IMG/VR virus record: IMGVR_UViG_3300046535_001697
Coordinates: 18,637-82,636 of that record
Direction: 5' to 3' (one strand)
Length of the DNA stretch: 64,000 nucleotides
From: a virus
Below, piece after piece: positions 11,296 through 63,236 of the stretch (positions within the stretch are counted from its first letter, which is position 1; the number at the start of each line of letters is the position of its first letter). The notes below the pieces were generated by a model, which was given only the letters and a program-made list of their open reading frames with translations, searched no databases and was not told where the DNA came from. A program made the position numbers and the translations under genes.

Positions 11296-12603
11296 TCAGG
11301 CGTGCTCGATGACGACGGCGCGCTTGAACAGGGCGGCGTCGCCGGTGCCGACGTCGGTGGGGACGCCGTAGTCGCCGATCCAGGACCAGGTCGAGGAGAG
11401 GATCTGCTGGAGGCGGTCCTGCGGCGGGCGGACGATCATGGTGATGTCCACGCCGGGGGCGGCGTTGATGGTGCGGACATCGGGGACGTCCTCGACGCCG
11501 GTGCCCGCGAGCAGGGAGCCGGTGGAGTCGAACGGGGCCGCCATGAGGGCGCTGCCGCCGAGGACGATCGGCCGGTGCACGGTGAGGGTTCCGGCGGAGC
11601 CGCCCAGGATGGTCGGGCACTCGATGTTGCGGACCCAGTCGATGCCGCCGAACCGGCCGATCGACAGGTCCCGGAAGATCGGGGAGTCGACGCGGCCCTG
11701 CAGGGCCTGCTTGAAGTCCGAGTCGGAGAACAGCTGCGCCTCGGTGTCGGGGTCGATGTGCGCGACGTAGTAGCCGTTGATCGTCGGCACGTTCATCTTC
11801 CGCAGGCGGGCGACCGCGGCGCGGAAGTTGGCGAAGGTGACGGTGTTGGACCCGGACAGGTCGTAGGCGGAGTTACCGGTGGCGCGGATGGTGACCGGGG
11901 CGTTGGAGGCGAGGACGTAGTCGCCGGCGGTGTCGGCGCGGGCGGTGCCCAGGGTGAGGGTGTTGGTGCCCGCGTTGACGCCGACGACGGTGTTCGCGAC
12001 GCCGGCGATGGTGACGTTGAGCGGGGTCGCGCCGGAGACCGGGGTGGGGACGCCGTTGACGAGGACGCTCGAGAAGCCGGCGACGGACTGCACGATGATG
12101 CTGGTGTCCGAGCCGGCAGTGGTGGTGCACCAGGTGCGGCCGCCGCTGTAGGCGGCGTAGAGCTTGTTGCGGGAGACCTGGTTGATGGTCTGGCCGGCGT
12201 TGATGGCGAGGGTCTCGACGTCGGACAGGAACTTGTTGGCGAGCGCCATCGAGCTGGACAGCAGGTTGGTGTCCATGGAGTTGCCGTACTGGTCCATGGT
12301 CACGGACCACTGCTCGATGCCGTAGGTGGCCGCGGACGGGTCGGAGCCGGTGATGGGGGTGGTGACCGGCGCGAGGAGGCCCTTGCGGGTGAAGGTCTTG
12401 GTGTCGCCGAGGCCGGCCATCCACGGCTCGGCGTCCGCGATGGCGGGGAAGATGAAGTTCGGGACGAGCGCGTCCTTGAAGACGCGGTCGAGGATGCCGT
12501 TCTGCAGCATCGCGCGGATCGCTGCGGGGACGGTGCCGCGGACGTCGTGCCGGGCGAGGTCGAACCACGGGCGGGCCGCGGTCAGGGTGGGGGTCATGCT
12601 CAC
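11296..12603 (-). CDS. Major capsid protein
   Basis: 435 aa after scaffold; 'FRAAVARLRKMNVP...YVAHIDP...GRFGGIDWV' HK97-fold motifs; N-terminal WFDLARHD. Confidence 0.88.
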   Translation of the reverse strand: MSMTPTLTAARPWFDLARHDVRGTVPAAIRAMLQNGILDRVFKDALVPNFIFPAIADAEPWMAGLGDTKTFTRKGLLAPVTTPITGSDPSAATYGIEQWSVTMDQYGNSMDTNLLSSSMALANKFLSDVETLAINAGQTINQVSRNKLYAAYSGGRTWCTTTAGSDTSIIVQSVAGFSSVLVNGVPTPVSGATPLNVTIAGVANTVVGVNAGTNTLTLGTARADTAGDYVLASNAPVTIRATGNSAYDLSGSNTVTFANFRAAVARLRKMNVPTINGYYVAHIDPDTEAQLFSDSDFKQALQGRVDSPIFRDLSIGRFGGIDWVRNIECPTILGGSAGTLTVHRPIVLGGSALMAAPFDSTGSLLAGTGVEDVPDVRTINAAPGVDITMIVRPPQDRLQQILSSTWSWIGDYGVPTDVGTGDAALFKRAVVIEHA

Positions 12604-12788
12604 TCCTCGGTGATGGTGACGGACACGAGGTCCGGGTGTTGCCGGGCGATCTGTTCGAGGCCCAGCAGTGCGGTTTGGGTGACGGCGGATACGGCCGCGC
12701 AGACGCGGCCTCCGGCGGCGTGCTCCTCATGGCCGACCACCTCGATGGAGGTGCGCCCGTCGCCCAGGCGGGCGCGGATGTGGATCAC
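12600..12788 (-). CDS. Mini Prp-like (ribosomal-processing-type) cysteine protease
   Basis: 62 aa with 'IEVVGH...VCAAVSAVTQTALLGL', the Prp/YsxB His-Cys signature; overlaps both neighbours. Confidence 0.75.
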   Translation of the reverse strand: MIHIRARLGDGRTSIEVVGHEEHAAGGRVCAAVSAVTQTALLGLEQIARQHPDLVSVTITEE

Positions 12789-13555
12789 GACCGGAGCCGG
12801 TACCCGTACTTGGCGAGTTCCGCGTCGCGCTCCTCGGGGGAGGCGTTGCGGAAGTCCGTGGCCGGTGCGGGCGGCCGGGAGCCCTGGCCCGGGTCGGGCT
12901 TGGGCCGGCGGGGCCGCTCGGCGGCCGGTGCGGGGTCGGCCGGGGCCGCGGCGGGGGCCTGCGGTGCGGGCTTCGCCCAGTGCGCCTTGCGGTCCAGGAG
13001 GTCGGCGAGGTCGGCCTCGATGGCCTCGGTGTCGATCTCGCCGTCGGAGTCGACGTACTTGGAGGGGTCGCGCATGAGGACCTCGACGGCGTCCGTCGGG
13101 TCGGCGAACCGGTCGATGGACAGGGTCCTCACCTCGGCGGCGACCGCGCGGGCGGTGGCCCTGGCGGCCTGTTCCGCGGCGCGCTCCGCCTTGGCGGTGG
13201 CCTTCTCGAGGTCGGACTTGTCGCGGTCCTCGTACTCGCGGACCTTGGCCTCGGCGGCGAGACGGGCCTTGCGCTCGTCCGCGGCCGCCCTCTTGGCTGC
13301 CTGCTGGGTGGCCTTCATTCGCTCGATGGCCCGCTTGGCCTTGTCGCCGAGCGCCGGGTCGTCGCCGTCCGGGCTGTCGCCCTCGGGCTCCGGGTCGCCG
13401 TCGTCGGCCGGGTCGGGGTCGGCCTGGGGGTCGGGGTCGGCGGCCGGATCCGGGTTGCCCGGGTCGGCCCCCTCGGGGGTGGGGTCGTCGCCCTCGTCGT
13501 GACGGGCGAGGTCGAACCAGTGCGGGGCACGGCTCGTCAGGGTGCGGTCGGACAT
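12785..13555 (-). CDS. Capsid scaffolding protein
   Basis: Acidic Pro-rich N-terminus, coiled coil 'EDRDKSDLEKA', 'FADPTDAV', N-terminal WFDLARHD. Confidence 0.85.
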   Translation of the reverse strand: MSDRTLTSRAPHWFDLARHDEGDDPTPEGADPGNPDPAADPDPQADPDPADDGDPEPEGDSPDGDDPALGDKAKRAIERMKATQQAAKRAAADERKARLAAEAKVREYEDRDKSDLEKATAKAERAAEQAARATARAVAAEVRTLSIDRFADPTDAVEVLMRDPSKYVDSDGEIDTEAIEADLADLLDRKAHWAKPAPQAPAAAPADPAPAAERPRRPKPDPGQGSRPPAPATDFRNASPEERDAELAKYGYRLRS

Positions 13556-13604: not shown

Positions 13605-14594
13605 TCAGATCAGGTAGCCGTAGCGGCGGAGCATCGCGATCAGCTCGTCGCGGTCCCCGGCGCGGGCGTAGATTTCCTCCGGCAGGAGGCGGTGGGCGCG
13701 GAGCTTGAAGCCCTTGCCGGACGGCGGGACCAGGCCGCGCTCGATCGCCCGCTGGCGTTCGAGGCGGAAGAACCGGCCCCGCTTGGTCGTGGAGTCGTAG
13801 GTGGAGCGCAGCCGCTGCCCGTACGAGTCGGCGGTGTACATGCCGCGGCGGGCGTTGACGACCTGCCCGATGTCGGCGCCGTCCCTGATGGCCTGCGCGC
13901 CGGCGGCGGTGAACACGCGGGCCTGTTCGGCCTCGGACAGGCTGTTGAAGTAGGCCCGCGGGTCCGTCATCGCCCGGCCCGCCTGGTAGCGGGTGACGGG
14001 CTGGTGCACGCAGTCGCAGTGCGGGTGGCGCTGGAAGCCGGTGTTGTACCGGTAGAAGGTGCCGGCCAGCACCACGCAGCGCGCGCAGGACGGCGGGCTG
14101 AGGACCCGCACGTAGCCGGTGACCGCCCGGTTGGAGGCGATCCCGGCCCCGGCCGCGGTCCTCCCCGCGTCCGCGACCTCCGTGGTCGCCGAGCGGAGCA
14201 GGGTGGCGAGGGATCCGGTCATGGCGTCCGCCTCCGCCTGGCCGGCCTCCAGGCGCCACTTCGCATCGATGACCGGCTCGTACAGCAGGCCGAGCAGGGA
14301 CCGGCCGTCGGCGGCCTGCCCGGCGAACGCCCCGACCCGGATGGCCCCGGCCGGATCGCTCTGGGCGCCGTCCGCGGCGATGACCGCCGCCAGGTAGGCG
14401 TCGGCCGGTGAGGCGGCGGCCTGCTGCCCTTCAGTGACGGCCTGCACCAGCGCCGGGCCGGCGGTCAGCCACTCGTGGTCGAGCCTGCGGGCATGCAGGC
14501 GCCGCCAGATGGCCTGCACCCGGTCCGCAGTGCGGCGCACGGTGCGCTGCTGCTGCAGGTAGTGCGCGGTGGCGATCTCCGAGGCGGTGGGCAC
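13605..14594 (-). CDS. Minor capsid / MuF-like protein
   Basis: 329 aa between portal and scaffold; 'CARCVVLAG...FQRHPHCDC' motif. Confidence 0.75.
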   Translation of the reverse strand: MPTASEIATAHYLQQQRTVRRTADRVQAIWRRLHARRLDHEWLTAGPALVQAVTEGQQAAASPADAYLAAVIAADGAQSDPAGAIRVGAFAGQAADGRSLLGLLYEPVIDAKWRLEAGQAEADAMTGSLATLLRSATTEVADAGRTAAGAGIASNRAVTGYVRVLSPPSCARCVVLAGTFYRYNTGFQRHPHCDCVHQPVTRYQAGRAMTDPRAYFNSLSEAEQARVFTAAGAQAIRDGADIGQVVNARRGMYTADSYGQRLRSTYDSTTKRGRFFRLERQRAIERGLVPPSGKGFKLRAHRLLPEEIYARAGDRDELIAMLRRYGYLI

Positions 14595-14597
14595 CGG

Positions 14598-16046
14598 CTA
14601 CTCCCCCGCAGCCGGAGGCGCCCCGTCCCCGCCGTCCGCAGGCTCGCCGCCGTCCGTGACGGGGGCGGCGGGTTCGGCCGGCGGTGGCGGCGGCTTGGGC
14701 CCGTACACGGCGGCGAGGTCGCCGCCCATGGCCCGGTCGAGGGCGTCCTGCTGCATGTCCCGCATCCGGGCCCGCTGCTCGGCGGAGTAGCCGAGGTCCT
14801 CCCAGGCCTGCTCGGTCGGCAGCAACCCCGCGGCGTGGAGCTTGACCACCGCATCGGCCTTCTGCGCGTACGTCGGCGTCGCCGGGTCCCGCCACTGCGT
14901 CTCCAGGGACCGGGCCGACGGTGCGACGTCGCCGTCCCGGACCAGCAGCGCCAGCCGCATGACCCGCTCCCACGGGCCGCCGAACGCCCTCTGCCGGCGC
15001 TCCGCACGCTTCACCAGCCGCGTCTCGGACGAGCGGATGGCGTCCGCCGAGACCGGGTTGTCGGTCGCCAGGCCCAGGAACGCCGGCGGCAGGCCGGTCA
15101 GCGACGCCACCAGCCGGGCCAGGGCGTTCAGCGTGTCGTGGAAGTTGGTCAGCTGCGCCTCGGGGAACTGCCCGTACTTGACGTCCGAGTTCTCCGTGGC
15201 CCACAGGCGGCCCGCGAGGGAGGAGAACGCGCCGAGCGGGTTGCCCTGCTCGTCGGTGAAGTCCTCCCGGGAGACGCCGGTCGCCCAGCGGCGCGGCATC
15301 GCGTGGTACTCCGCGGACAGCATCATGTCCGTGGCGATCTTGCAGGCGGCATCCGAGAGCGGGATGACGGCCTTCAGCTCGGACGTGCCCAGGGCGCTCT
15401 CGAGACGGGGCCGGTTCGCGAGCATCTCGACCGGGACCTGCCCCAGGTCGTGCTGGTCGCCCTCGTCCGTCTTCTCGGCCCACTTGCCCTTCTCGAGGGC
15501 GAACACGTGCCGCGAGTCCGGCAGGTACAGCGTCGCCATCTTCGTCGGCGCTGCGCCCAGGCAGGGCTCCTCCCAGCGCTTGACCGCGGCGAGGACCTTC
15601 CGGGTGCGGGGGTCCCGTTCGGCGTAGACCTGCAGCGCCGACTCCACGGTGATCAGCGGGGTGTCGTCGTCCTCGTCGTTCGCGCCGACGATGACGTACG
15701 CCCGGCCGAGGGCCAGCGCATCCACGTGGCCCTGCTGGGAGCCCTCGTCGAGGTCGTTGGCCTGCCAGATGGACCACAGGTCGTCCGCGGTGGTCTCCGA
15801 GTCCGCGTACCGGAACCCTTCGACGTCCAGGCGTTCCTCGAGGGAGTCGACGACCAGCTGCGGCCAGTTGATGACGACCTGCCGCATCCGGTCCTGGAGT
15901 TCGTTGAGGAGCTCGGGCGCCATGTACGACAGGGGCTGGCTGCCCTCGTAGTAGGAGTTCATGAGCACGAGGCCCTTCTTCGCCTCGTCGTGGTCGGCGA
16001 CGAGGCGCTTCAGCCACTGCTCGGGGTCCAGATCGCTCAGCGCCAT
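14598..16046 (-). CDS. Portal protein (SPP1-like family)
   Basis: 482 aa; 'YYEG', 'NWPQLVVD', 'IWQANDLD', 'SADAIR', 'WRDP' motifs; follows terminase. Confidence 0.93.
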   Translation of the reverse strand: MALSDLDPEQWLKRLVADHDEAKKGLVLMNSYYEGSQPLSYMAPELLNELQDRMRQVVINWPQLVVDSLEERLDVEGFRYADSETTADDLWSIWQANDLDEGSQQGHVDALALGRAYVIVGANDEDDDTPLITVESALQVYAERDPRTRKVLAAVKRWEEPCLGAAPTKMATLYLPDSRHVFALEKGKWAEKTDEGDQHDLGQVPVEMLANRPRLESALGTSELKAVIPLSDAACKIATDMMLSAEYHAMPRRWATGVSREDFTDEQGNPLGAFSSLAGRLWATENSDVKYGQFPEAQLTNFHDTLNALARLVASLTGLPPAFLGLATDNPVSADAIRSSETRLVKRAERRQRAFGGPWERVMRLALLVRDGDVAPSARSLETQWRDPATPTYAQKADAVVKLHAAGLLPTEQAWEDLGYSAEQRARMRDMQQDALDRAMGGDLAAVYGPKPPPPPAEPAAPVTDGGEPADGGDGAPPAAGE

Positions 16047-16059
16047 CGGGCACCCCCTG

Positions 16060-17694
16060 TCATCGCATCACGGTGGTTCTCCGTGGGGTTTTGGGTCGGG
16101 CGAGACCCGCTGCGACGGCGTCGCTGGCGGCCTCGTGGGCAAGGACTGACACGACCGCGAGGTCGATCTTCTGGTGGGGTGCGGCCTTGCGGAGCACGTA
16201 CCGGTCGGCCGGCCGGGCCGCCCGGCGGGCGTGCCCGACGTGCGCCGAGGTGTCCTCGCAGCCGTCGTGGAAGAACGTGCTGTCGGCCTTGGTGACGTCG
16301 GTGACCAGGCGTTCGCACGCGGCGTGCATCCGGATGATCTGGTTGGTGTTCCACTTGAAGACCCGCTTGTCGCCGTACTTCTCCGCCCACGCGTCGACCT
16401 CGGTCGGCCAGTACGGCGGGTCGCAGTACATGCGGACGACGTCGTAGCGGCGCATCAGCTCGTCGAGTGCGGCGTCGACTTCCAGGCGCGGCACCTGGCC
16501 GCCCCACTCCTTCGGGTCCCACACGGTCGGCAGGGCCAGGGAGCTGTAGACGGGCGTGAACTGGTAGCCGTCCAGGGTCTCGGCGCGGATCCCGGTCCAG
16601 TCGTCGATGTCCGAGCCGTCGAAGCCGAGGACCACGGAGGTGCCGTCGGGCACGTCCCGGTGGGTCTCCCGCGCGTCCCAGTGGTCGCGGTTGATCCAGG
16701 TCCCAGTGCCGGCGACGACCCGGTTGCCGAAGAACCGCTCGGCCTCCGCGGGCTCCTTCTCGAGGAGCTCGGCGGCCTCGCCCTCGATGGCGTCGAGGTC
16801 GATGTGCGTGGACCCGGCGTAGACGTGACTGTGGATCTTCCGCCGTTCGGCCTTGTTGGCGTACGACAGGCCCTTGGGCGGGGGCCGGTGGTACCGGTAG
16901 ACGTCGGTCTGCTTGGTCTCGGAGGTCTTCTGCGCGACCGAGTTCTCCGACGGGTCCCAGCAGTTCGTGGTCTCCAGCGAGCGGCCGCTCATGCCCGCCA
17001 GGCCGCGGCGCTGGGTCGTGGCGACCTTCGTCATCTTGTTGCCGTCGGTCCAGATACCCGTCTCGTCCTGGATCGCGAACGTGATCGGGTTTCCCAGGCG
17101 GGACTGCGCCGACGACGTGACGACGTCGATCCGGCCGTCGTTCGGCAGCCGGATGAACTGCTCGCCGACCTTCATCAGGTCACCGAGCGGGCCGTTGCGG
17201 ATCATCGCCTGCAACGGCCGGTAGACGTTGTCGGTCTGGTCCTCGCTGGTCGCGGTGATCTGCAGCAGCGGAGTCGACCACGGCCGGCCCATCGGCTCGC
17301 CCGGCTCGTACTCGTACATCCAGCCGCAGCCGCAGCCATGCGCCCGGCAGTCGTACACCTCGCCGCCCGCGGCCCAGCCGGCGAACAGCACCGGCCCGAC
17401 CGCTTCCGCCGCCGTGATCCCCGCGGTCCAGGGGCCCTTGCCCGACTTCTGAGGCGCGACGACCTGGCCGCGCCGGTAGTGAAACGCCGTCGACAGCTGG
17501 CCCACCTTGGCCGTCGGCCGCACCCGGTAGAAGTTGGCGGTGGCCCGCAGCTGCCAGTCGTACATCTCGAACGACTGCGGGCCCCGGGTCAGGCCTCCGA
17601 CGGACTCCAGGCGGCAGTGCCTGGCGATCCAGTCGGGGACGACGAACAGCGTCGGGAAGTCCAGCGGCCAGGTGCCGTCGTCAGCTGCCGCCAC
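16060..17694 (-). CDS. terL: Terminase large subunit
   Basis: Walker A 'PQKSGKG', Walker B 'AIQDE', nuclease 'GFDGS', C-terminal 'KIDLAV'. Confidence 0.93.
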   Translation of the reverse strand: MAAADDGTWPLDFPTLFVVPDWIARHCRLESVGGLTRGPQSFEMYDWQLRATANFYRVRPTAKVGQLSTAFHYRRGQVVAPQKSGKGPWTAGITAAEAVGPVLFAGWAAGGEVYDCRAHGCGCGWMYEYEPGEPMGRPWSTPLLQITATSEDQTDNVYRPLQAMIRNGPLGDLMKVGEQFIRLPNDGRIDVVTSSAQSRLGNPITFAIQDETGIWTDGNKMTKVATTQRRGLAGMSGRSLETTNCWDPSENSVAQKTSETKQTDVYRYHRPPPKGLSYANKAERRKIHSHVYAGSTHIDLDAIEGEAAELLEKEPAEAERFFGNRVVAGTGTWINRDHWDARETHRDVPDGTSVVLGFDGSDIDDWTGIRAETLDGYQFTPVYSSLALPTVWDPKEWGGQVPRLEVDAALDELMRRYDVVRMYCDPPYWPTEVDAWAEKYGDKRVFKWNTNQIIRMHAACERLVTDVTKADSTFFHDGCEDTSAHVGHARRAARPADRYVLRKAAPHQKIDLAVVSVLAHEAASDAVAAGLARPKTPRRTTVMR

Positions 17695-18580: not shown

Positions 18581-18931
18581 CTACCGGACCTGCCGGTGCT
18601 CTGCCCCGCCGACCTGGCCGGGCTCCCCGGTGACGTGGCGCAGCGGGTAGCCGTGAGCGGCGCGAGCGCGGTTGATGTTGACCGTCGTGCGCTTGATGGC
18701 TACGCAGATGCGTTCGAGCTCGGCAGGGGTGAGCACGAGGGCGGGCGTGGGCCGGCTGTCGGGGTGGGGCAGGGCGCAGCCGTACGGCTGGTCCGGGTCC
18801 ACCAGTAGGCGGAGGTTGACGATGCCGCCGGTTGCCACGGTGCCCAGTTCGTCGGCGGTGGTGGTGTGCTCCTCGGCGATGGCTGTGCTGCCGTCGGGCA
18901 GCCGGCGCACACGGGTCAGGTCCTGGGTCAT
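18581..18931 (-). CDS. Hypothetical protein
   Basis: 116 aa ORF coupled to neighbour (ATGA overlap). Confidence 0.5.
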   Translation of the reverse strand: MTQDLTRVRRLPDGSTAIAEEHTTTADELGTVATGGIVNLRLLVDPDQPYGCALPHPDSRPTPALVLTPAELERICVAIKRTTVNINRARAAHGYPLRHVTGEPGQVGGAEHRQVR

Positions 18932-26441: not shown

Positions 26442-27272
26442 ATGGATAGCATCAGGCAGCGGGAAGCGCTGCGGGCGTTCCTGCGGTGTGCCAGGGCGGC
26501 TCTGTCGCCGGAGGAGGTCGGCCTGCCCCCGCGGGCCGAGGGGCGGGGCCGCCGCGCGGTGGGCCTGTCCCAGGAGCAGGTGGACGAGCTGATGAACCGG
26601 GCCGCGGGCACGTATGCCCGGCTGGAACGCGGCTCGCTGTACGGGGTGACGCCGGAGCTGTGCCGGGACGTGGCGCTCGCGCTGCGCTTCGCGGAGGAGC
26701 AGTGGCAGGCGCTGTGGATCTACATGTACGGGCATCTGCCGCCGTGGCTGCTGCACCCGTCGCAGGCGGGCCTGGTGGGCGGGCACTGGCGGCGGGTGGT
26801 GGAGATGCACGGGGAGCCGGCGTACGTGACGGACGCGGGCTGGAACATCATCTACCACAACCACCTGTTCGCGGCGATCTTCCCGGGGAGGGTGGCTCCG
26901 GCGAACGCGATGGAGTGGATGATGCTGTCGGCGGACGCCCGGCACCGGCTGGTGGACTGGCCGCGGGCGTGGGCGCCGAAGGTGCTGCCGCAGCTGCGGG
27001 CGGCGGTGTTGGAGCATCCGGAGAACGAGACGCTGCAGTGGCTGGACCGGGCGGTGCGGCGGGATCCGGTGGCGGGCCGGCTGTACGGGGAGACGCACGA
27101 TGCGCATCTGCAGCCGGACGGGGACGTGCGGCAGCTGGTGCACGCGGGCCGAGGGGACCGCCAGGTGGTGCAGATGGCGGCGGCGGAGCCGACGGGCAAG
27201 CGCGGTGCGCGGTTCATGGTGCTGCAGCTCGATCCGGTGGTGGGGGATCGGACGTTCGCCGACGTCATGTGA
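26442..27272 (+). CDS. MmyB-family transcriptional regulator (XRE HTH plus PAS-like ligand-binding domain)
   Basis: 'LRAFLR...LSPEEVGLP...RR.VGLSQEQV...YARLERG', then 'PAYVTDAGWNIIYHN'. Confidence 0.88.
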   Translation: MDSIRQREALRAFLRCARAALSPEEVGLPPRAEGRGRRAVGLSQEQVDELMNRAAGTYARLERGSLYGVTPELCRDVALALRFAEEQWQALWIYMYGHLPPWLLHPSQAGLVGGHWRRVVEMHGEPAYVTDAGWNIIYHNHLFAAIFPGRVAPANAMEWMMLSADARHRLVDWPRAWAPKVLPQLRAAVLEHPENETLQWLDRAVRRDPVAGRLYGETHDAHLQPDGDVRQLVHAGRGDRQVVQMAAAEPTGKRGARFMVLQLDPVVGDRTFADVM

Positions 27273-27292
27273 CGTGGTTCGGGAACTGATCA

Positions 27293-27323
27293 CCGGCCGC
27301 CCCTTGTGGTGAGGGGCGGCCGG
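27293..27323 (+). terminator. Strong hairpin between regulator and PKS
   Basis: CCGGCCGCCCCTT-GTGGT-GAGGGGCGGCCGG. Confidence 0.5.
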
Positions 27324-27433
27324 GTAGTTGTCTGGTCCAACGCACCGTGGGCGTGGCCGCTGATTGGCCGGGCTTGGCCGGGCGCCATCGTCCGGCCGCG
27401 TCTCGGTGCCGGACGAGAGGGAGGGGACCTGTC

Positions 27434-28507
27434 ATGATCAGTCCCGAAGTGCGGCCGGTGTTCGTGTCCCGGCCGGCGGTGTTCCTGCCGGAACACGTGG
27501 TGACACGGGAGACGATCCTCGCCGACATGCTCACCCGGCACCCGGACCACCCCCGGGCCCGGCTGCTCCCCCGGCTGCTGGACAAGCTGCCCGCCACGCG
27601 TCGCATGTCCCGGCCGTGGGAGACCGTGATCTCGGATCGGACGTTGGAGGAGCGCAACCGCGGGGCGTTCGCGGACGTGGTGACGATGGGTGGGGCCGCC
27701 GCGCGCCAGGTGCTGGAGCTGCACGGCGTGGACCCGGGCGCCGTGGACTGCGTGGTGACCACGCACTCCACGGGCGACGCCGTCCCCGGCCTGGACGTCC
27801 ACCTGGTCGACGCGCTGGGGCTGCGCCCGGATGTGTCGCGCCGTCCGATGACACAGCTCGGCTGCGGCGGCGGCGCGCACGGCCTGGTGATGGCCGCCGA
27901 GTTCGTGCGGGCCCGCCCCGGGTCGACGGTGCTGGTCGTCGCGGCGGAGTCCCTGTCGAGCATCTACCACCACGGCGACACCGACATCCAAGGCATGATC
28001 TTCAAGGCGCTGTGGGGCGACTCCGGCGCAGCGGTCCTCGTCTCGGACCGGCCGTTCGGGCCGGGGCTGCAGGTCGACGGGCCGACGTGGGAGTACCTGA
28101 TCCCCGGCTCGGCCGGCCGCTACACCAAGCGCCTCGACGCCGACGGCGTGCACTTCGACTCGGTGAAGGCGTCGATGAACTGCGTGCCGGACATGGGCCC
28201 GGCGCTGCGGGAGTGGCTGTGGCAGTACGGCCCGGAGCGGCTCGACTTCGTGGTCGCGCACACCGGCGGCGAGGCCATCCTCGCCTCCCTGGCCGACGAG
28301 CTGGAGCCCCTTGGCGTCGACACCGGCATGCTGGTCCACTCGTGGGCGTCCCTCGACGAGGAGGGCAACCTCGGCGGGCCGTCCGTGCTGGCTGTCCTGG
28401 ACCGCACCCACGCCGCGCCGCCGAAGCCCGGCGACCGGGGGCTGCTCCTCGGCTTCGGGCCCGGGTTCTCCGTGTCGGCGCTGACCGTGACATGGACTGA
28501 CGGCTGA
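27434..28507 (+). CDS. Type III polyketide synthase (PhlD/RppA-like)
   Basis: Catalytic triad motifs QLGCGGG, AHTGG, EGNLGG; 'GFGPGFS' C-terminus; GAGGGG RBS. Confidence 0.93.
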   Translation: MISPEVRPVFVSRPAVFLPEHVVTRETILADMLTRHPDHPRARLLPRLLDKLPATRRMSRPWETVISDRTLEERNRGAFADVVTMGGAAARQVLELHGVDPGAVDCVVTTHSTGDAVPGLDVHLVDALGLRPDVSRRPMTQLGCGGGAHGLVMAAEFVRARPGSTVLVVAAESLSSIYHHGDTDIQGMIFKALWGDSGAAVLVSDRPFGPGLQVDGPTWEYLIPGSAGRYTKRLDADGVHFDSVKASMNCVPDMGPALREWLWQYGPERLDFVVAHTGGEAILASLADELEPLGVDTGMLVHSWASLDEEGNLGGPSVLAVLDRTHAAPPKPGDRGLLLGFGPGFSVSALTVTWTDG

Positions 28508-28625
28508 GTCGCTCCGGTCGCTGCCCGGGCCGGGCTGTCCGACCCGGGCGCCATCATGCCCCGGTGGCCGGGTGATCCCCTGGCTGCCGAACCATCCCCT
28601 CGCCTCCCCGAAGGACAAGTCGCCG

Positions 28626-29450
28626 ATGCTCCATGTCCCTCCGCCCCCTCCTGCCGCCTCGGTTGCGGATGCCCCGAAGTGGACGGACGTGATGTCCGCC
28701 TGGGGATCCCTGGGCGCGGTCGTGTTCGCCGTCGTCGCGATCGGCGCCACCCTGTGGCTGGCCGACCGGGACCGGAAACGGTCCGAGCAGCTGCGGCAGC
28801 AGGACCTGGCCGCGGCCGCCCAGGACCGGGCCGAGGCAGACGCCCGGCTGATCGCCGAACGGGCCGCAGCGGACCAGCGACTGCGGGACGAGCGAGCCGA
28901 CCGGGACCGCCGCCAGGCACGCGACTGGCAGGCCGCTGCTGCGGTCAGGCTCCTGGAGCGGATCGCCGGGATCCAGCCCCATCTCGTGCGGCTCACCAAC
29001 CACCAGACGTCCCCCGTGGCGCAGCCGGACCGGACCGAGGCGATTCGGCACTTGCGCGACGGCGCCATGTCCGATGCGCTCGCCCTCGGCGACGCCAACG
29101 GGACGCTCCTCTACCGGACGCTGGCCGGTCTGGTCGTCGGCGCGACCCCGGCCATGAACGAGCTCCAGCGGACCGGGAGCGATGGCGCGACGCTCGGTGC
29201 CTCGGCGGAGATGCTGGCTCTCAACGTGCGCCGCTACTCCCGGTACGTGCGTCTGTGGCTGCACCATCTGATCGAGCACGGCTCCATCCCGGACCACGCG
29301 GTCGGGCCGGCCCGTTCCCTTCATGCGCCGATCCTGACGGCGCTCACTGCCCAGGTCGCGTGGACGCCGATCGAGCATCCGGCCGGGTGGGACGAGGACA
29401 CCGACCTCGACCCGGACGATCCCCAGTCGAGGTTGTACCCGCGCAGGTAG
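28626..29450 (+). CDS. Membrane-anchored coiled-coil hypothetical protein
   Basis: 'WTDVMSAWGSLGAVVFAVVAI' TM segment followed by coiled coil; start uncertain. Confidence 0.6.
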   Translation: MLHVPPPPPAASVADAPKWTDVMSAWGSLGAVVFAVVAIGATLWLADRDRKRSEQLRQQDLAAAAQDRAEADARLIAERAAADQRLRDERADRDRRQARDWQAAAAVRLLERIAGIQPHLVRLTNHQTSPVAQPDRTEAIRHLRDGAMSDALALGDANGTLLYRTLAGLVVGATPAMNELQRTGSDGATLGASAEMLALNVRRYSRYVRLWLHHLIEHGSIPDHAVGPARSLHAPILTALTAQVAWTPIEHPAGWDEDTDLDPDDPQSRLYPRR

Positions 29451-29553
29451 CCGTGGTCGGGAAGCGAGCCGGCCGCCCTGTCACGCCCGCGCGCAATGAT
29501 GTGCACGGCGGTCTCCCCCTCGGCCGCCGTCCCCCAGCGATCCGGAGAACACC

Positions 29554-29889
29554 GTGGACCAGAACCAAGTCCTCAAGCACGTCGTCGCCATCCTCGCCGC
29601 CGGGGACGGGATGCGGACCTCGGACGACCCGCAGCTCGGCACCGAGTTCACCCAGCTCCTCGGCGAGGTCATGAACGACTCTCTCGGCAAGCTGGAGTTC
29701 GCCGAGGACGAGCCGCTGAGCGAAGTCCTGCCGGTGATCGGGCAGGCGTTCGCCGAGCCCCTGATGAAGCTGGTCGGCGGATTCATGGTCGCCTTCCTGC
29801 AGCTCGCCGAGGTCCACGACTCCGGGCAGACCCACCTGTCTTCGAAGGATGTCCTGCAGGACCTGGCGCTGCGCGTCGAACAGGGCTGA
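29554..29889 (+). CDS. Hypothetical helical protein
   Basis: 111 aa, GGAGA RBS. Confidence 0.65.
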   Translation: MDQNQVLKHVVAILAAGDGMRTSDDPQLGTEFTQLLGEVMNDSLGKLEFAEDEPLSEVLPVIGQAFAEPLMKLVGGFMVAFLQLAEVHDSGQTHLSSKDVLQDLALRVEQG

Positions 29890-49099: not shown

Positions 49100-49303
49100 T
49101 CAGGCTGCGGCCGGGTAGTCGGCAAGGTCTCGGATGACCGTGGCCGTGGGCCGTCCGGCGGGGATGGGTTCGAACTCGGGCTGGCAGTCGCCAAGCTGCG
49201 GGTTGAGCGCGCGCACGGTGCGGGGGTCGGCGCCGGCGGCGATCCGTTCCCACCGGTCGTTCTCGTCCACGGCGTCCGTGCCGGTGGCCGGCCCTGCGGT
49301 CAC
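49100..49303 (-). CDS. Hypothetical protein
   Basis: GTGA overlap with upstream gene. Confidence 0.5.
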   Translation of the reverse strand: MTAGPATGTDAVDENDRWERIAAGADPRTVRALNPQLGDCQPEFEPIPAGRPTATVIRDLADYPAAA

Positions 49304-49662
49304 GGCTCGACCACCTCCACCGGGATCCCCGCGGCCTCGGCGAGCTGCATGCAGCCGCGGGTACCCCTCGACTCGCCGTACGGGAACGCGAGACACAGGT
49401 CAGCGCCGGACTCGACCATCTGCCGGTTGCGGAGCGGCCCGGCAACGCGGCCGTGCAGCGTCCAGTTCGCGACGTACGGGTCCGTCTTGATGCGACGCGC
49501 GTGGGCCCACTTCGCGGCGTGGAGGTCAGCGCCGCTGGGGCAGTTGCCGTGGACGATGGTCAGCGTGTCGGGCTCGTGGCCGGTGGCCGCCCGGTCGAGG
49601 GCGTCCCAGACTGCCTGCTGGTTGGGCCAGTGGCGGCTGCCGGTGACGAGGATGCGGGGCAT
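49300..49662 (-). CDS. SLOG/DUF2493 (YspA-like) protein
   Basis: 'RILVTGSR.W...IVHG.CPSGAD...AGPLRNRQMV...CLAFP...SRGT'. Confidence 0.88.
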   Translation of the reverse strand: MPRILVTGSRHWPNQQAVWDALDRAATGHEPDTLTIVHGNCPSGADLHAAKWAHARRIKTDPYVANWTLHGRVAGPLRNRQMVESGADLCLAFPYGESRGTRGCMQLAEAAGIPVEVVEP

Positions 49663-50548: not shown

Positions 50549-51637
50549 TCAAGCAGCGACAGCCGCACGGGCCGCGGCGGCTACGGGCTGCGGGAGGCCG
50601 AACGCCGCGGCACACACGTGCGCGGCCAGCAGCGGCGGCACAGCGTTACCGACCTGCTCAAACTGCCTCGTTCGGGTGCCCTGCCACGGATAGTCAGCGG
50701 GGAACGACTGCAGCACCCCGGCCTCCTGGACGGTGATGCGCACCGTGTCCGGGCTGGCGAACTGCGACTCACCGCCAGGGTTGCGGTTCCGGTGCCCCGG
50801 CGGCGCGATGCGACTGTCAGCGCACACGGTGGTGGCGGGCCGTACGTGAATCCACTCGACGCGGGCCGCGTTGTTGCCGAACGCGACGGTCGGCGCGGGC
50901 TCGCCTAGGCCGCGGATTGCGGCGCCGGCCTGGTTGCCGTTCCTGAGCATCGTTCCGTCGGCCGGCCAGCTGAGCGCGTCGGCCATGGGCACCCAGGGGG
51001 CCCGGCCAGGGCCGAACAGGCCGGCGTCCTCGGCGTGCTCCGCGTGGGTCGGCACGGGGGGCTGCACGGCCCGGACCCGGGACGCTATGAGGATCGCCCG
51101 GCGGCGGGTCTGGGGGACGCCGTAGTCGGCGGCGTTCAGCTCCCCGGCCCACACGCTGTAGCCCCAGCCGCGCAGCGTCTCGGCGTACTGCCGGAACAGG
51201 GGCAGCACGTCGGGGACTTCCTCCATGACGACGTCTTCGGGGCGGAGGTCGGCCAGGTAGCGCATGGGTTCGGCGGCGAGCAGGCTGCGCGGGTCCTGGC
51301 ACTGGGCGAGCAGGGCGGTCCGGGTGTCGCGGCCGTGCGCGAGGTCGTGGACGGCCTGGTGCACGAGCGGCTGGTCGACTAGGCCCAACCGCTTGCCTGC
51401 GCGGGACCAGGCCTGGCAGGGCGGGGAGGCGATGAGGCGGCGGATCCGGCCCTTCATGGGGGCGGTGGCGAGCTGGGCGATGTCGGCGCGCACGGTGTGG
51501 TGCCCGGCGGCGCGGCGGGTCCGGCAGGCGGCGGCGTCCCATTCGATGCCGATGTCGATGAGGCCGAGGTGGCCGCGGATGCCCTCGGACCAGCCGCCGG
51601 GGCCGGCGAACAGGTCCAGCACGTCGGGGGTGTGCAT
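50549..51637 (-). CDS. C5-cytosine DNA methyltransferase
   Basis: Motifs 'DLFAGPGG', 'SPPCQ', 'EEV', 'YGVPQTRRR', 'QVGNAVPP'. Confidence 0.93.
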   Translation of the reverse strand: MHTPDVLDLFAGPGGWSEGIRGHLGLIDIGIEWDAAACRTRRAAGHHTVRADIAQLATAPMKGRIRRLIASPPCQAWSRAGKRLGLVDQPLVHQAVHDLAHGRDTRTALLAQCQDPRSLLAAEPMRYLADLRPEDVVMEEVPDVLPLFRQYAETLRGWGYSVWAGELNAADYGVPQTRRRAILIASRVRAVQPPVPTHAEHAEDAGLFGPGRAPWVPMADALSWPADGTMLRNGNQAGAAIRGLGEPAPTVAFGNNAARVEWIHVRPATTVCADSRIAPPGHRNRNPGGESQFASPDTVRITVQEAGVLQSFPADYPWQGTRTRQFEQVGNAVPPLLAAHVCAAAFGLPQPVAAAARAAVAA

Positions 51638-52198: not shown

Positions 52199-52945
52199 TC
52201 AGGCAGCAGGCAGGGTGGCCTGTGAGAGGCGCAGGGCGGCCCGTTCGGCATAGGGCTCGTGGGCCTCAATGCCGATGGCGCGGCGGCCGGCCTGCCGAGC
52301 GGCGTCGAGGGTGGAGCCGGAGCCGGCGAACAGGTCGAGGACGAGTCCGCCGGGCGGGCAGGCGTAGCGGATCAGCGGGTCCAGCAGGCCGATCGGCTTC
52401 TCGGTGGGATGCAGGCCACCGCGGACGGATTGCGCGCGCTGGACTGATCGCATGAGGCGGGTGCCGTCGTCGGTGTACCGGTGCGCACCGATTGCTCCCG
52501 TGTGCGGCGTCCGGGCTGTGCGGGCGCGGGCGTGCTTGTCGGGGCCGTTGTACGAGACTCGCGGGGTGTCGTGGTGCACGCCCCCCCAGCTTCCGCGATA
52601 CCAGTGCGTGGCGATCTCGTGGACGCGCTTGAAGCGGTCGGTGGCGAAGCCTGTTCCGTTGGCCTTCTCCCACACGATGTCCTGGCTCATCTGCCAGCCG
52701 GCCCCGGCGAACTCGGCGCCGTGCTGGAGGAACATGCGCATCGACCCGAAGCACCACATCGACGACGCGGCCGTGGCGGCAAGGGTGGGCCAGCAGTCGG
52801 GCCACCGGTCCCAGGTGAGGGACGTCTCGCCGTAGGGTGGATCGACTACGATCAAATCGGCCTTGATGCCGAGGGCGGGAAGAACCTCGCGGCAGTCCCC
52901 GAGGTAGAGTTTGACGTTTTCGTCCTCGTAATAGGGCTCGGTCAT
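52199..52945 (-). CDS. N6-adenine/N4-cytosine DNA methyltransferase (beta class)
   Basis: 'DPPY' precedes 'HPTEKP...LDLFAGSGST'. Confidence 0.93.
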   Translation of the reverse strand: MTEPYYEDENVKLYLGDCREVLPALGIKADLIVVDPPYGETSLTWDRWPDCWPTLAATAASSMWCFGSMRMFLQHGAEFAGAGWQMSQDIVWEKANGTGFATDRFKRVHEIATHWYRGSWGGVHHDTPRVSYNGPDKHARARTARTPHTGAIGAHRYTDDGTRLMRSVQRAQSVRGGLHPTEKPIGLLDPLIRYACPPGGLVLDLFAGSGSTLDAARQAGRRAIGIEAHEPYAERAALRLSQATLPAA

Positions 52946-55619: not shown

Positions 55620-56132
55620 TCAGAAAGGCGGCTCTTCCGAGAACCCCTGCTGCGGAGCACCCCACCCACCGCCACCGCCCTGCTGCCCCGCCGAATCCCC
55701 CCAGCCACCACCGCCGCCCGAGCCGCCCTGCCTCGCCTGACCGCCACCCGCCGTCGCCCCGCCCGGCCGCTGCACCCTCGTCACCTTCGCCGTCGCCGAC
55801 CGCAGCGTCGGACCGACCTCGTCGACATCCAGCTCCATCACCGTCCGCTTCTCTCCCTCCTTCGTCTCGTAGGAGCGCTGGCGGAGCCGGCCCTGGACGA
55901 TGACGCGCATGCCGCGCTGCAGCGACTCCGCCACGTTCTCGGCCGGCTGCCGCCACACGGTGCACGGGAGGAACAGGCTGTCGCCGTCCTTCCACTCGTT
56001 GGTCTGCCGGTCGTAGGTGCGCGGGGTAGACGCGATGCGGAACTTTGCAACTGCGTCGCCGCCGGGGGTGAACCGCAGCTCGGGGTCGTCGACCAGGTTG
56101 CCGACCAGGGTGATCACGGTCTCTCCAGCCAT
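55620..56132 (-). CDS. ssb: Single-stranded DNA-binding protein
   Basis: '[23 protein letters not shown]...' with C-terminal 'EEPPF'. Confidence 0.97.
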
Positions 56133-62567: not shown

Positions 62568-63236
62568 GTGACTCACATGCAATCCTCTGTCCTCGTCGTG
62601 TCCACAGACCCTCAGGGCTCCGCCGTATGGTGGGCCGACCGGGTCGACGAAGGCCTCCCCTTCGATTTCGCGCAGGCCCACGACGACCCCTCCGGCCTCA
62701 AGGCCCTCCGCGACTTCGGCGCGAAAATCCACGTCGTCGCGAACCAGAAGGGCGGCGTCGGCAAGACCACCCTCGCCATCAATCTCGGCGCCGTCGTCTA
62801 CGACACCATCGGCCAGGCCCCCGGCTACAAGCACATCTTCATCGACACCCCCGGCAGCCTCGAGGACGAACGGCTCCTCGCCGCGTCCCTCGCCATCGCC
62901 GACGACGTCCTCGTGCCGATGCCGCCCGAGCCTCTCGCGTTCGATCCGACCGCCCGCACCATCGAGCAGGTCATCCGGCCGCGCGAGCTGCCGTTCCGCG
63001 TCGTCATCAACAACTGGGACCCCCGCGACGGCAAGGCCGACCTCGAAGAGACCCAGCAGTACATAGACGCACAGGGCTGGCCCCGGACCACATCGGTGAT
63101 CCGCCGCTACAAAATCCACACCCGGGCTTCCGCCGAGGGCCGCGTCGTCACCCAGTACCAGCGCAACAGGGTCGCCATGGAGGCCCGCGAGGACTTCTTC
63201 CGCTGCGCCCTCGAGCTGAACTACGGGGGGAACTGA
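62568..63236 (+). CDS. parA: ParA-family partition ATPase with permuted motif order
   Basis: 'NQKGGVGKTT', 'STDPQGS', 'IFIDTPG'; coupled to parB. Confidence 0.88.
   Translation: MTHMQSSVLVVSTDPQGSAVWWADRVDEGLPFDFAQAHDDPSGLKALRDFGAKIHVVANQKGGVGKTTLAINLGAVVYDTIGQAPGYKHIFIDTPGSLEDERLLAASLAIADDVLVPMPPEPLAFDPTARTIEQVIRPRELPFRVVINNWDPRDGKADLEETQQYIDAQGWPRTTSVIRRYKIHTRASAEGRVVTQYQRNRVAMEAREDFFRCALELNYGGN

Follow-up and report, generated by a model that had tools for sequence, protein, structure and literature searches.

The 64,000-base stretch analyzed here (the window) spans positions 18,637 to 82,636 of an 82,636-base viral record from a Streptomyces-type phage, IMG/VR entry IMGVR_UViG_3300046535_001697, for which CheckV estimated a completeness of 87%. 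On its minus strand, a 62-amino-acid open reading frame (ORF) referred to below as mini-Prp (12600 to 12788) lies between the genes for a 256-amino-acid scaffolding protein (12785 to 13555; PHROG 4708, head scaffolding protein; E value, 2.4e−19) and the major capsid protein (11296 to 12603; PHROG 1357, major head protein; E value, 2.2e−23). The scaffold stop codon overlaps the mini-Prp start in the sequence GTGA, and the mini-Prp ORF ends just upstream of the capsid start. Read from GTG 12603 the capsid protein has 435 amino acids, and residue numbers given here follow that reading. However, ATG 12597 (433 amino acids) appears to be the more likely start, as it is preceded by GAGGAG 6 nucleotides upstream and M-T-P at this position is conserved among relatives. 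The capsid protein scored 50 bits against TIGR04387 (N4-gp56-type capsid), under the cut-off of 60, and shared 55.5% identity with the major capsid protein of Streptomyces phage Kromp. For the 62-amino-acid ORF, the G+C content was 0.89 at third codon positions and 0.47 at second positions, and ratios of nonsynonymous to synonymous substitution rates against 16 relatives of the same length ranged from 0.00 to 0.65, mostly 0.23 to 0.41.

As noted in the original prediction, which was made from the sequence of this stretch alone, the scaffold and capsid proteins share the octapeptide WFDLARHD. It occupies residues 13 to 20 of both proteins (13496 to 13519 in the scaffold gene and 12544 to 12567 in the capsid gene, both on the minus strand) and would fall at residues 11 to 18 of a capsid starting at ATG 12597. 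The similarity of the two proteins also reaches upstream of this tag, with TLTSRAPH in the scaffold and TLTAARP in the capsid. When the whole 82,636-base record was translated in six frames, the pattern F.[LIV].RH[DEAN] occurred exactly twice, at the N termini of these two proteins; 30 mononucleotide shuffles gave a mean of 0.27 occurrences and a maximum of 2. An internal scaffold site, LSIDRF/ADPTD (13102 to 13125, minus strand; the slash marks the candidate cut), was rejected as a further tag, as relatives have GEFAD, GKFAD, or SGFAD there. A recent DNA copy from one tag to the other was also considered and set aside; 23 of 24 nucleotides agreed by eye, but every codon was the usual high-GC choice, so the agreement is little informative.

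The association between the tag and the gene was followed in 34 viral contigs fetched through capsid similarity alone. Mini-Prp was found between scaffold and capsid in 33 of the 34, although in one of these (L016) it was cut by the contig end; the other contig (L025) begins at the capsid gene with no upstream DNA and therefore cannot be scored for mini-Prp. The pattern F.[LIV].RH[DEAN] was matched by 31 of 34 capsids, with variants in the remaining 3, and by 26 of the 30 scaffolds whose N terminus lay on the contig, with variants in 4; the other four contigs end too early. Thus, the co-occurrence that the original prediction had proposed to check was observed, with the motif or a variant in all 34 capsids and in all 30 scorable scaffolds. 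Variants tended to appear on both proteins: L010 and L011 carry LPF[VL]P...RHD on scaffold and capsid alike and encode the most divergent protease, and L035 has Leu instead of Arg on both. A Phe replaces the His in the L006 scaffold. The residue after the tag His was Asp, Ala, Asn, or Glu in relatives.

The same arrangement was identified in phage Kromp (MH744420) and in four Streptomycetaceae prophages. Kromp gp6, for which "protease" is only a database label, likewise has 62 amino acids, is 75.8% identical to mini-Prp, and lies in the same gene order (terminase, portal, VG15-like protein, scaffold, protease, capsid); the Kromp tags read WFQLTRHD in the scaffold and WFRLDRHD in the capsid. 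The tag is therefore conserved on both putative substrates and tied to the gene.

A minimal member of the Prp family

The 62-amino-acid gene encodes a member of the Prp family (MEROPS C108). The Pfam model Peptidase_Prp (PF04327) matched with 32 bits (gathering cut-off, 27) over profile positions 1 to 57 of 90, and the protein was also assigned to PHROG 4478 ("peptidase"). The His20/Cys30 signature "GH...VCAAVS" that had drawn attention to the gene could be read as G19-H20 (His codon, 12729 to 12731) and V29-C30-A-A-V-S (Cys codon, 12699 to 12701). Across 117 sequences, down to ∼35% identity, H20 and C30 were the sole invariant columns, and Gly19 was nearly invariant. A profile built from these relatives was compared with the PDB and identified five distinct solved Prp chains, 4peo (E value, 2.1e−19), 2g0i, 7jvs, 2idl, and 1s12, all at E values of ≤3e−11, with all non-Prp rows at E values of >0.05. 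The hidden Markov model comparison suggested at the outset thus came out in favor of Prp, with a Pfam score above the cut-off and profile matches to Prp structures only. From its sequence, the protein is predicted to be catalytically active.

Relatives of this size are numerous. In a collection clustered at 90% identity, 383 of 384 candidates matched at an E value of ≤0.001, and all 120 matches listed were 62 to 64 amino acids in length, the named sources among them being Streptomyces, Kitasatospora, Nonomuraea, Streptosporangium, and Kribbella. Among representatives at 50% identity there were 89 matches, many of 58 to 76 amino acids. Many of the 62- to 64-amino-acid relatives among the matches listed carry the NCBI name "ribosomal-processing cysteine protease Prp." A scan of genome contigs with the 62-amino-acid protein returned two close loci together with full-length Prp genes of Bacillota and other metagenome-assembled genomes.

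When aligned with full-length Prp, the first ∼45 residues of mini-Prp corresponded to strands 1 and 2, the Gly-His loop, the Cys, and helix 1, and the last ∼17 residues covered the terminal part of helix 2 (Q-[HY]-P) plus the final strand. In agreement with this, phmmer split the match to full-length proteins into two stretches, one example being query residues 27 to 60 on residues 73 to 106. A split or truncated gene was considered and rejected, as both phmmer and the alignment matched the C-terminal 20 residues to the C-terminal end of full-length Prp. The protein is therefore small through an internal deletion. The original prediction of an actinobacterial Prp of roughly half size was correct as to the family; however, the small size reflects loss of internal residues and not truncation, and 70-amino-acid forms described below occur in viral contigs of 46 to 47% G+C.

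An AlphaFold2 (AF2) monomer model of mini-Prp had a predicted local distance difference test (pLDDT) score of 92.3, with strands at residues 3 to 9 and 12 to 18, a helix at residues 27 to 50, and a C-terminal segment. Compared with 48,161 chains using VIA, the model ranked four Prp entries first, 1s12 (Z score, 4.8; root mean square deviation [rmsd], 2.1; 53 residues aligned), 2idl (4.7), 4peo (4.6), and 2g0i (4.0). In BFVD, the sole match at an E value of ≤0.001 was a 61-amino-acid "Cysteine protease Prp" of an uncultured phage (TM score, 0.70). A two-copy model reached an ipSAE of 0.50 (individual runs, 0.52, 0.48, and 0.50) versus 0.00 for the best control, with at least 92% contact agreement between runs and a partner pLDDT of at least 76. 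When the dimer tool was calibrated, 20 of 30 solved pairs reached its mark, as did 1 of 23 single chains. In the model, residues 55 to 60 lie against residues 2 to 7 of the other chain, strand 2 pairs with strand 2′, and the helices pack together. These predictions suggest that mini-Prp could form a homodimer, although solved full-length Prp dimers exist, and the score of the two-copy model may partly reflect memory of them.

Relation to known Prp systems and a proposed role in head maturation

The Prp of Staphylococcus aureus (SaPrp; YsxB; PF04327, C108) acts on ribosomal protein L27 and on the phage 80alpha scaffold (gp46) and capsid (gp47), and mini-Prp shares with it the family and the Gly-His...Val-Cys-Ala-Ala-Val-Ser core. 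According to PMC5744158, PMC9405229, and PMC9261936, host Prp trims 13 to 14 residues off the 80alpha scaffold and capsid at a site of the same type as in L27, and Table 1 of PMC9405229 gives the scaffold and capsid sites as KFNLQFF'A and LNLQHF'A. SaPrp is described in PMC9261936 as a dimer with P1, P2, P4, and P6 in hydrophobic environments. The window resembles this system in having short N-terminal leaders common to scaffold and capsid and in the match of Phe/Leu at P6 and Leu at P4. A homodimer is solved for SaPrp and predicted for mini-Prp. It differs in that mini-Prp has 62 rather than 106 amino acids, is phage encoded rather than host encoded, and has no L27 substrate in the host. The putative P2-P1 residues are Arg-His, compared with Phe-Phe or His-Phe in the SaPrp sites, and the predicted P1′ residue is Asp, Ala, Asn, or Glu instead of Ala. 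The original prediction had also stated that pneumococcal phage Cp-1 encodes its own Prp homolog, but in PMC9405229 the Cp-1 protease shares the MEROPS clan of Prp and not its family.

Taken with the evidence above, it is likely that the phage supplies a minimal Prp-family protease, probably an intertwined homodimer, which trims tagged leaders from both scaffold and capsid. The phage would bring its own Prp because its actinobacterial hosts have none. Scaffold and capsid would each be made with a leader of ∼17 to 19 residues ending in F-x-L-x-R-H; mini-Prp would bind this tag and cut after the His, the P1′ residue being Asp in the window and Ala, Asn, or Glu among relatives, and the leaders would be lost from both proteins around procapsid assembly. 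In the scaffold, the predicted leader comprises 19 residues ending in WFDLARH (13499 to 13555) and is followed by an Asp/Pro-rich region, so that the proposed cut falls between His19 and Asp20; in the capsid, the cut would likewise follow the His and leave the Asp as the first mature residue. The enzyme itself would consist of one beta-beta-alpha-beta unit, derived from full-length Prp by loss of ∼45 internal residues. An intertwined homodimer is the most likely form, and there the first strand of each chain could pair with the C-terminal strand of its partner.

Full-length Prp is also phage borne and located in the head module in phages of lower-GC hosts; in Enterococcus phage phiFL3A (gp45) and Oenococcus phage Krappator, homologs annotated as "peptidase" adjoin the portal gene. 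One single-protein query (P0171) identified 205 viral contigs, of which the best 80 were kept (L052 to L131); a second query (P0135) had no match in viral contigs. Among the best 80 of the 205, two downstream ORFs starting with an ...LQ[LFMR]F leader were found in 51, one such ORF in 6, and none by this pattern in 23, which may have other tags or other gene orders. Unlike mini-Prp, these lower-GC phage Prp proteins are mostly 85 to 125 amino acids with a complete fold, and their tags are the canonical ...LQxF/A. However, seven of the best 80 (L052 to L058; 46 to 47% G+C) encode 70-amino-acid forms that share the internal deletion and accompany leaders ending in F-x-[LM]-Q-R-F/N; Arg at P2 links them to the tag of the window. 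The short form is therefore not confined to actinobacterial phages. These seven differ from mini-Prp in a His-Cys spacing of 12 residues, in retaining the Lys-Asp-Ile-Val-Cys loop, and in having Phe rather than His at P1.

Literature searches found no paper on a short Prp, an actinophage Prp, or the function of Kromp gp6 (Kromp appears in one preprint, but only as a test phage) and none describing a full-length phage Prp with two tagged head proteins as a system. Already known are the labels "protease" for Kromp gp6, "Prp" at NCBI, and "Cysteine protease Prp" for a 61-amino-acid UniProt entry, and the combination of a phage Prp with two leader-tagged proteins is common in lower-GC contigs.

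Several observations weigh against a protease that trims these leaders. A phmmer search with the single 62-amino-acid sequence against PDB sequences returned no chain at an E value of ≤1, and the NCBIfam Prp equivalogs (PRK14553.x) scored at most 22.4 bits against cut-offs of 122 to 225 (136 for the best one). Foldseek comparison of the monomer model with the PDB returned nothing at an E value of ≤0.001, so that, in the structural check suggested in the original prediction, the VIA ranking favored Prp and Foldseek did not. The VIA Z scores were themselves low (4.0 to 4.8), and the model was aligned to the C-terminal half of Prp, whereas the sequence match is to the N-terminal half. The alignment to the second half indicates that the two Prp halves share a topology and that the mini form is one such unit. 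The absent ∼45 residues, a third of the fold, would sit after helix 1 and before the terminal part of helix 2, and they could include part of the substrate pocket. In addition, the loop from His to Cys has lost two residues relative to SaPrp (spacing of 10 versus 12), and mini-Prp lacks the Asp that precedes the Cys by three positions (G-G-R-V-C versus H-D-I-V-C in SaPrp); PMC9261936 reports that loss of the corresponding Asp31, a structure-stabilizing residue, abolishes SaPrp activity. The 34 contigs include many near-duplicates (the 34 Prp sequences extracted from 42 loci comprise 22 distinct ones), and within this lineage of capsids the link between tag and gene amounts in essence to a single evolutionary event. 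Lastly, PMC5744158 reports that 80alpha stays viable without cleavage of either the scaffold or the capsid protein but needs the scaffold leader itself. Because cleavage is dispensable there, the purpose of cutting is unclear even in 80alpha.

The missing fold residues and the missing Asp would also suit a noncatalytic protein derived from Prp, which would act as a chaperone or assembly adaptor, bring scaffold and capsid together by their shared tag, and leave the leaders uncut. A common-chaperone role for the shared N-terminal sequence is raised by the 80alpha authors in PMC5744158. However, a mere binder would not need both His and Cys, and these are the only columns without exception in the family alignment, with the Gly nearly so; a leader-binding factor of this kind is therefore unlikely, and proteolysis of the leaders is preferred.

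A more specific version of the protease reading is tentative and, in our judgment, has somewhat less than an even chance. The active 62-residue protein would be a strand-swapped "half-Prp" homodimer that rebuilds the internally repeated Prp fold with two active sites, its specificity shifted from Phe-Phe/Ala to Arg-His/Asp, and it would represent a distinct and widespread clade of phage enzymes for head maturation in hosts that lack Prp. Retroviral proteases have 99 residues, compared with 106 for SaPrp, and an active enzyme of 62 residues would be, to our knowledge, among the smallest proteases. Were it active, the protein would reveal how small a part of the Prp fold suffices for sequence-specific proteolysis, and the 62-amino-acid enzyme with its tag of ∼8 residues could provide a compact and highly specific pair for protein engineering. 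If the proposed role is true, phages can bring the Prp head-processing scheme into hosts without Prp.

Leaderless relatives, hosts, and neighboring genes

Six phage records encode capsids 33 to 34% identical to that of the window over residues 26 to 434: Ralstonia phages Raharianne (two records), Albius, and Hyacinthe and Komagataeibacter phages phiKX1 and phiKX2. Head modules were inspected in two of the six, Raharianne and phiKX1. Both contain a portal gene, a gene for a small upstream protein, and the capsid gene, with no Prp and no VG15-like gene annotated. Their capsids start with MPISNFPAALQ (Raharianne) and MAIANFPASLQ (phiKX1), and ungapped extension of the tblastn alignment placed Met1 of each opposite Asp20, the residue after the tag His. 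The protein upstream of the capsid starts with an Asp/Pro-rich stretch in Raharianne and without such a tag in phiKX1. Retention of the motif in relatives lacking the gene had been named as an outcome that would speak against the original prediction; these two phages, without a Prp annotation, were also without the leader. Of the present data, the register of the leaderless capsids speaks most strongly for the putative cut between His and Asp. The two tagged head proteins are candidate substrates.

A Kitasatospora genome carrying a 98% identical copy of the gene provides a view of the host side. The prophage copy was the sole PF04327 match in this genome. Its L27 starts with MAHKKG and has no extension, and the L27 gene directly follows that of L21 with nothing between them. 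The gene has no ribosomal role in this lysogen; given the absence of another Prp and the short L27, it is best regarded as a head maturation enzyme and not a ribosomal one. From the short L27 and the low equivalog scores, the NCBI name "ribosomal-processing cysteine protease Prp" is a family label and not a function, and the widespread "ribosomal-processing" label can be corrected at least for the lysogen examined. In 301 sampled genomes of the family to which this lysogen belongs, the gene was present in 5 at an E value of ≤1e−20, and two further matches (E value, ∼4e−4) inside open frames of ∼650 amino acids were probably spurious. Presence in 5 of 301 is the pattern expected of prophage cargo, and the gene could serve as a prophage marker.

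These data also bear on whether the shared tag might persist on the mature proteins as a permanent signal for assembly or targeting, with mini-Prp cutting some other phage or host protein. The 80alpha scaffold offers a precedent, as PMC5744158 reports that its N-terminal sequence is required for assembly and its cleavage is not. Against this, the 82.6-kb record holds no third copy of the strict tag and hence no visible alternative substrate; relatives that lack the leader still assemble capsids of this family; and L27 of the lysogen has no extension to remove. A permanent signal is thus the least probable of the explanations considered, and trimming of the leaders by mini-Prp remains the favored one.

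The head genes continue upstream of the scaffold on the minus strand with a gene for a 329-amino-acid VG15/MuF-like minor head protein (13605 to 14594; Pfam PF25310, VG15; E value, 2.2e−8), a portal gene (SPP1 gp6-like; 14598 to 16046; Pfam PF05133; E value, 3.7e−50), and a gene without a Pfam match that was assigned as the large terminase subunit from its position and the Kromp gene order (16060 to 17694). In line with the original prediction, in which no HK97-type protease was seen, PF04586 (S78), PF00574 (ClpP), and PF01343 (S49) had no match at an E value of ≤0.1 in the 82,636-base record, which is an estimated 87% complete, so that such a gene could lie outside it. Similarly, PF04233 (Phage_Mu_F) had no match in the record at an E value of ≤1, and the 329-amino-acid protein is therefore named VG15-like on the Pfam evidence only. 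In some related contigs, the homologous ORF is ∼670 amino acids with an extra C-terminal part.

This neighbor raises the question of whether the leaders could be removed by another enzyme, either the VG15/MuF-like protein or a host protease, while mini-Prp has a different target. The Kromp homolog, gp4, is annotated as a "capsid maturation protease," and the protein of the window matched PHROG 1522 ("head maturation protease") with an E value of 1.2e−71. In 47 sequences, Cys170, Cys173, His190, Cys193, Asp194, and Cys195 were invariant, and this Cys/His cluster looks like a metal site. However, the PHROG 1522 match spans just positions 25 to 346 of 591, Pfam assigns VG15, and sources name the protein VG15 or Mu F-like. 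An AF2 model (pLDDT, 88.3) had no Foldseek match in the PDB at an E value of ≤0.001; VIA identified generic helical bundles over residues 1 to 157 (best, 4x0r; Z score, 8.4; rmsd, 3.8; 141 residues aligned) and no protease fold, with residues 158 to 329 barely covered. The tag, moreover, resembles a known Prp site. Since Raharianne and phiKX1 lack the VG15-like gene too, the comparison with them does not separate the two candidates. Overall, removal of the leaders by an enzyme other than mini-Prp is considered very unlikely, and mini-Prp is the preferred candidate.

Elsewhere in the window, an island on the opposite strand (26442 to 29889, plus strand) is flanked on both sides by phage-type genes. 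It contains an MmyB-like regulator (PF17765), a type III polyketide synthase (386 amino acids; chalcone/stilbene synthase domains), and two ORFs without assignment, and may be metabolic cargo. Further genes encode a YspA/SLOG-family protein (49300 to 49662), a C5 cytosine methylase (50549 to 51637), an N6/N4 methylase (52199 to 52945), and an SSB (55620 to 56132). A ParA-like ATPase gene (62568 to 63236) hints at plasmid-like maintenance of the prophage.

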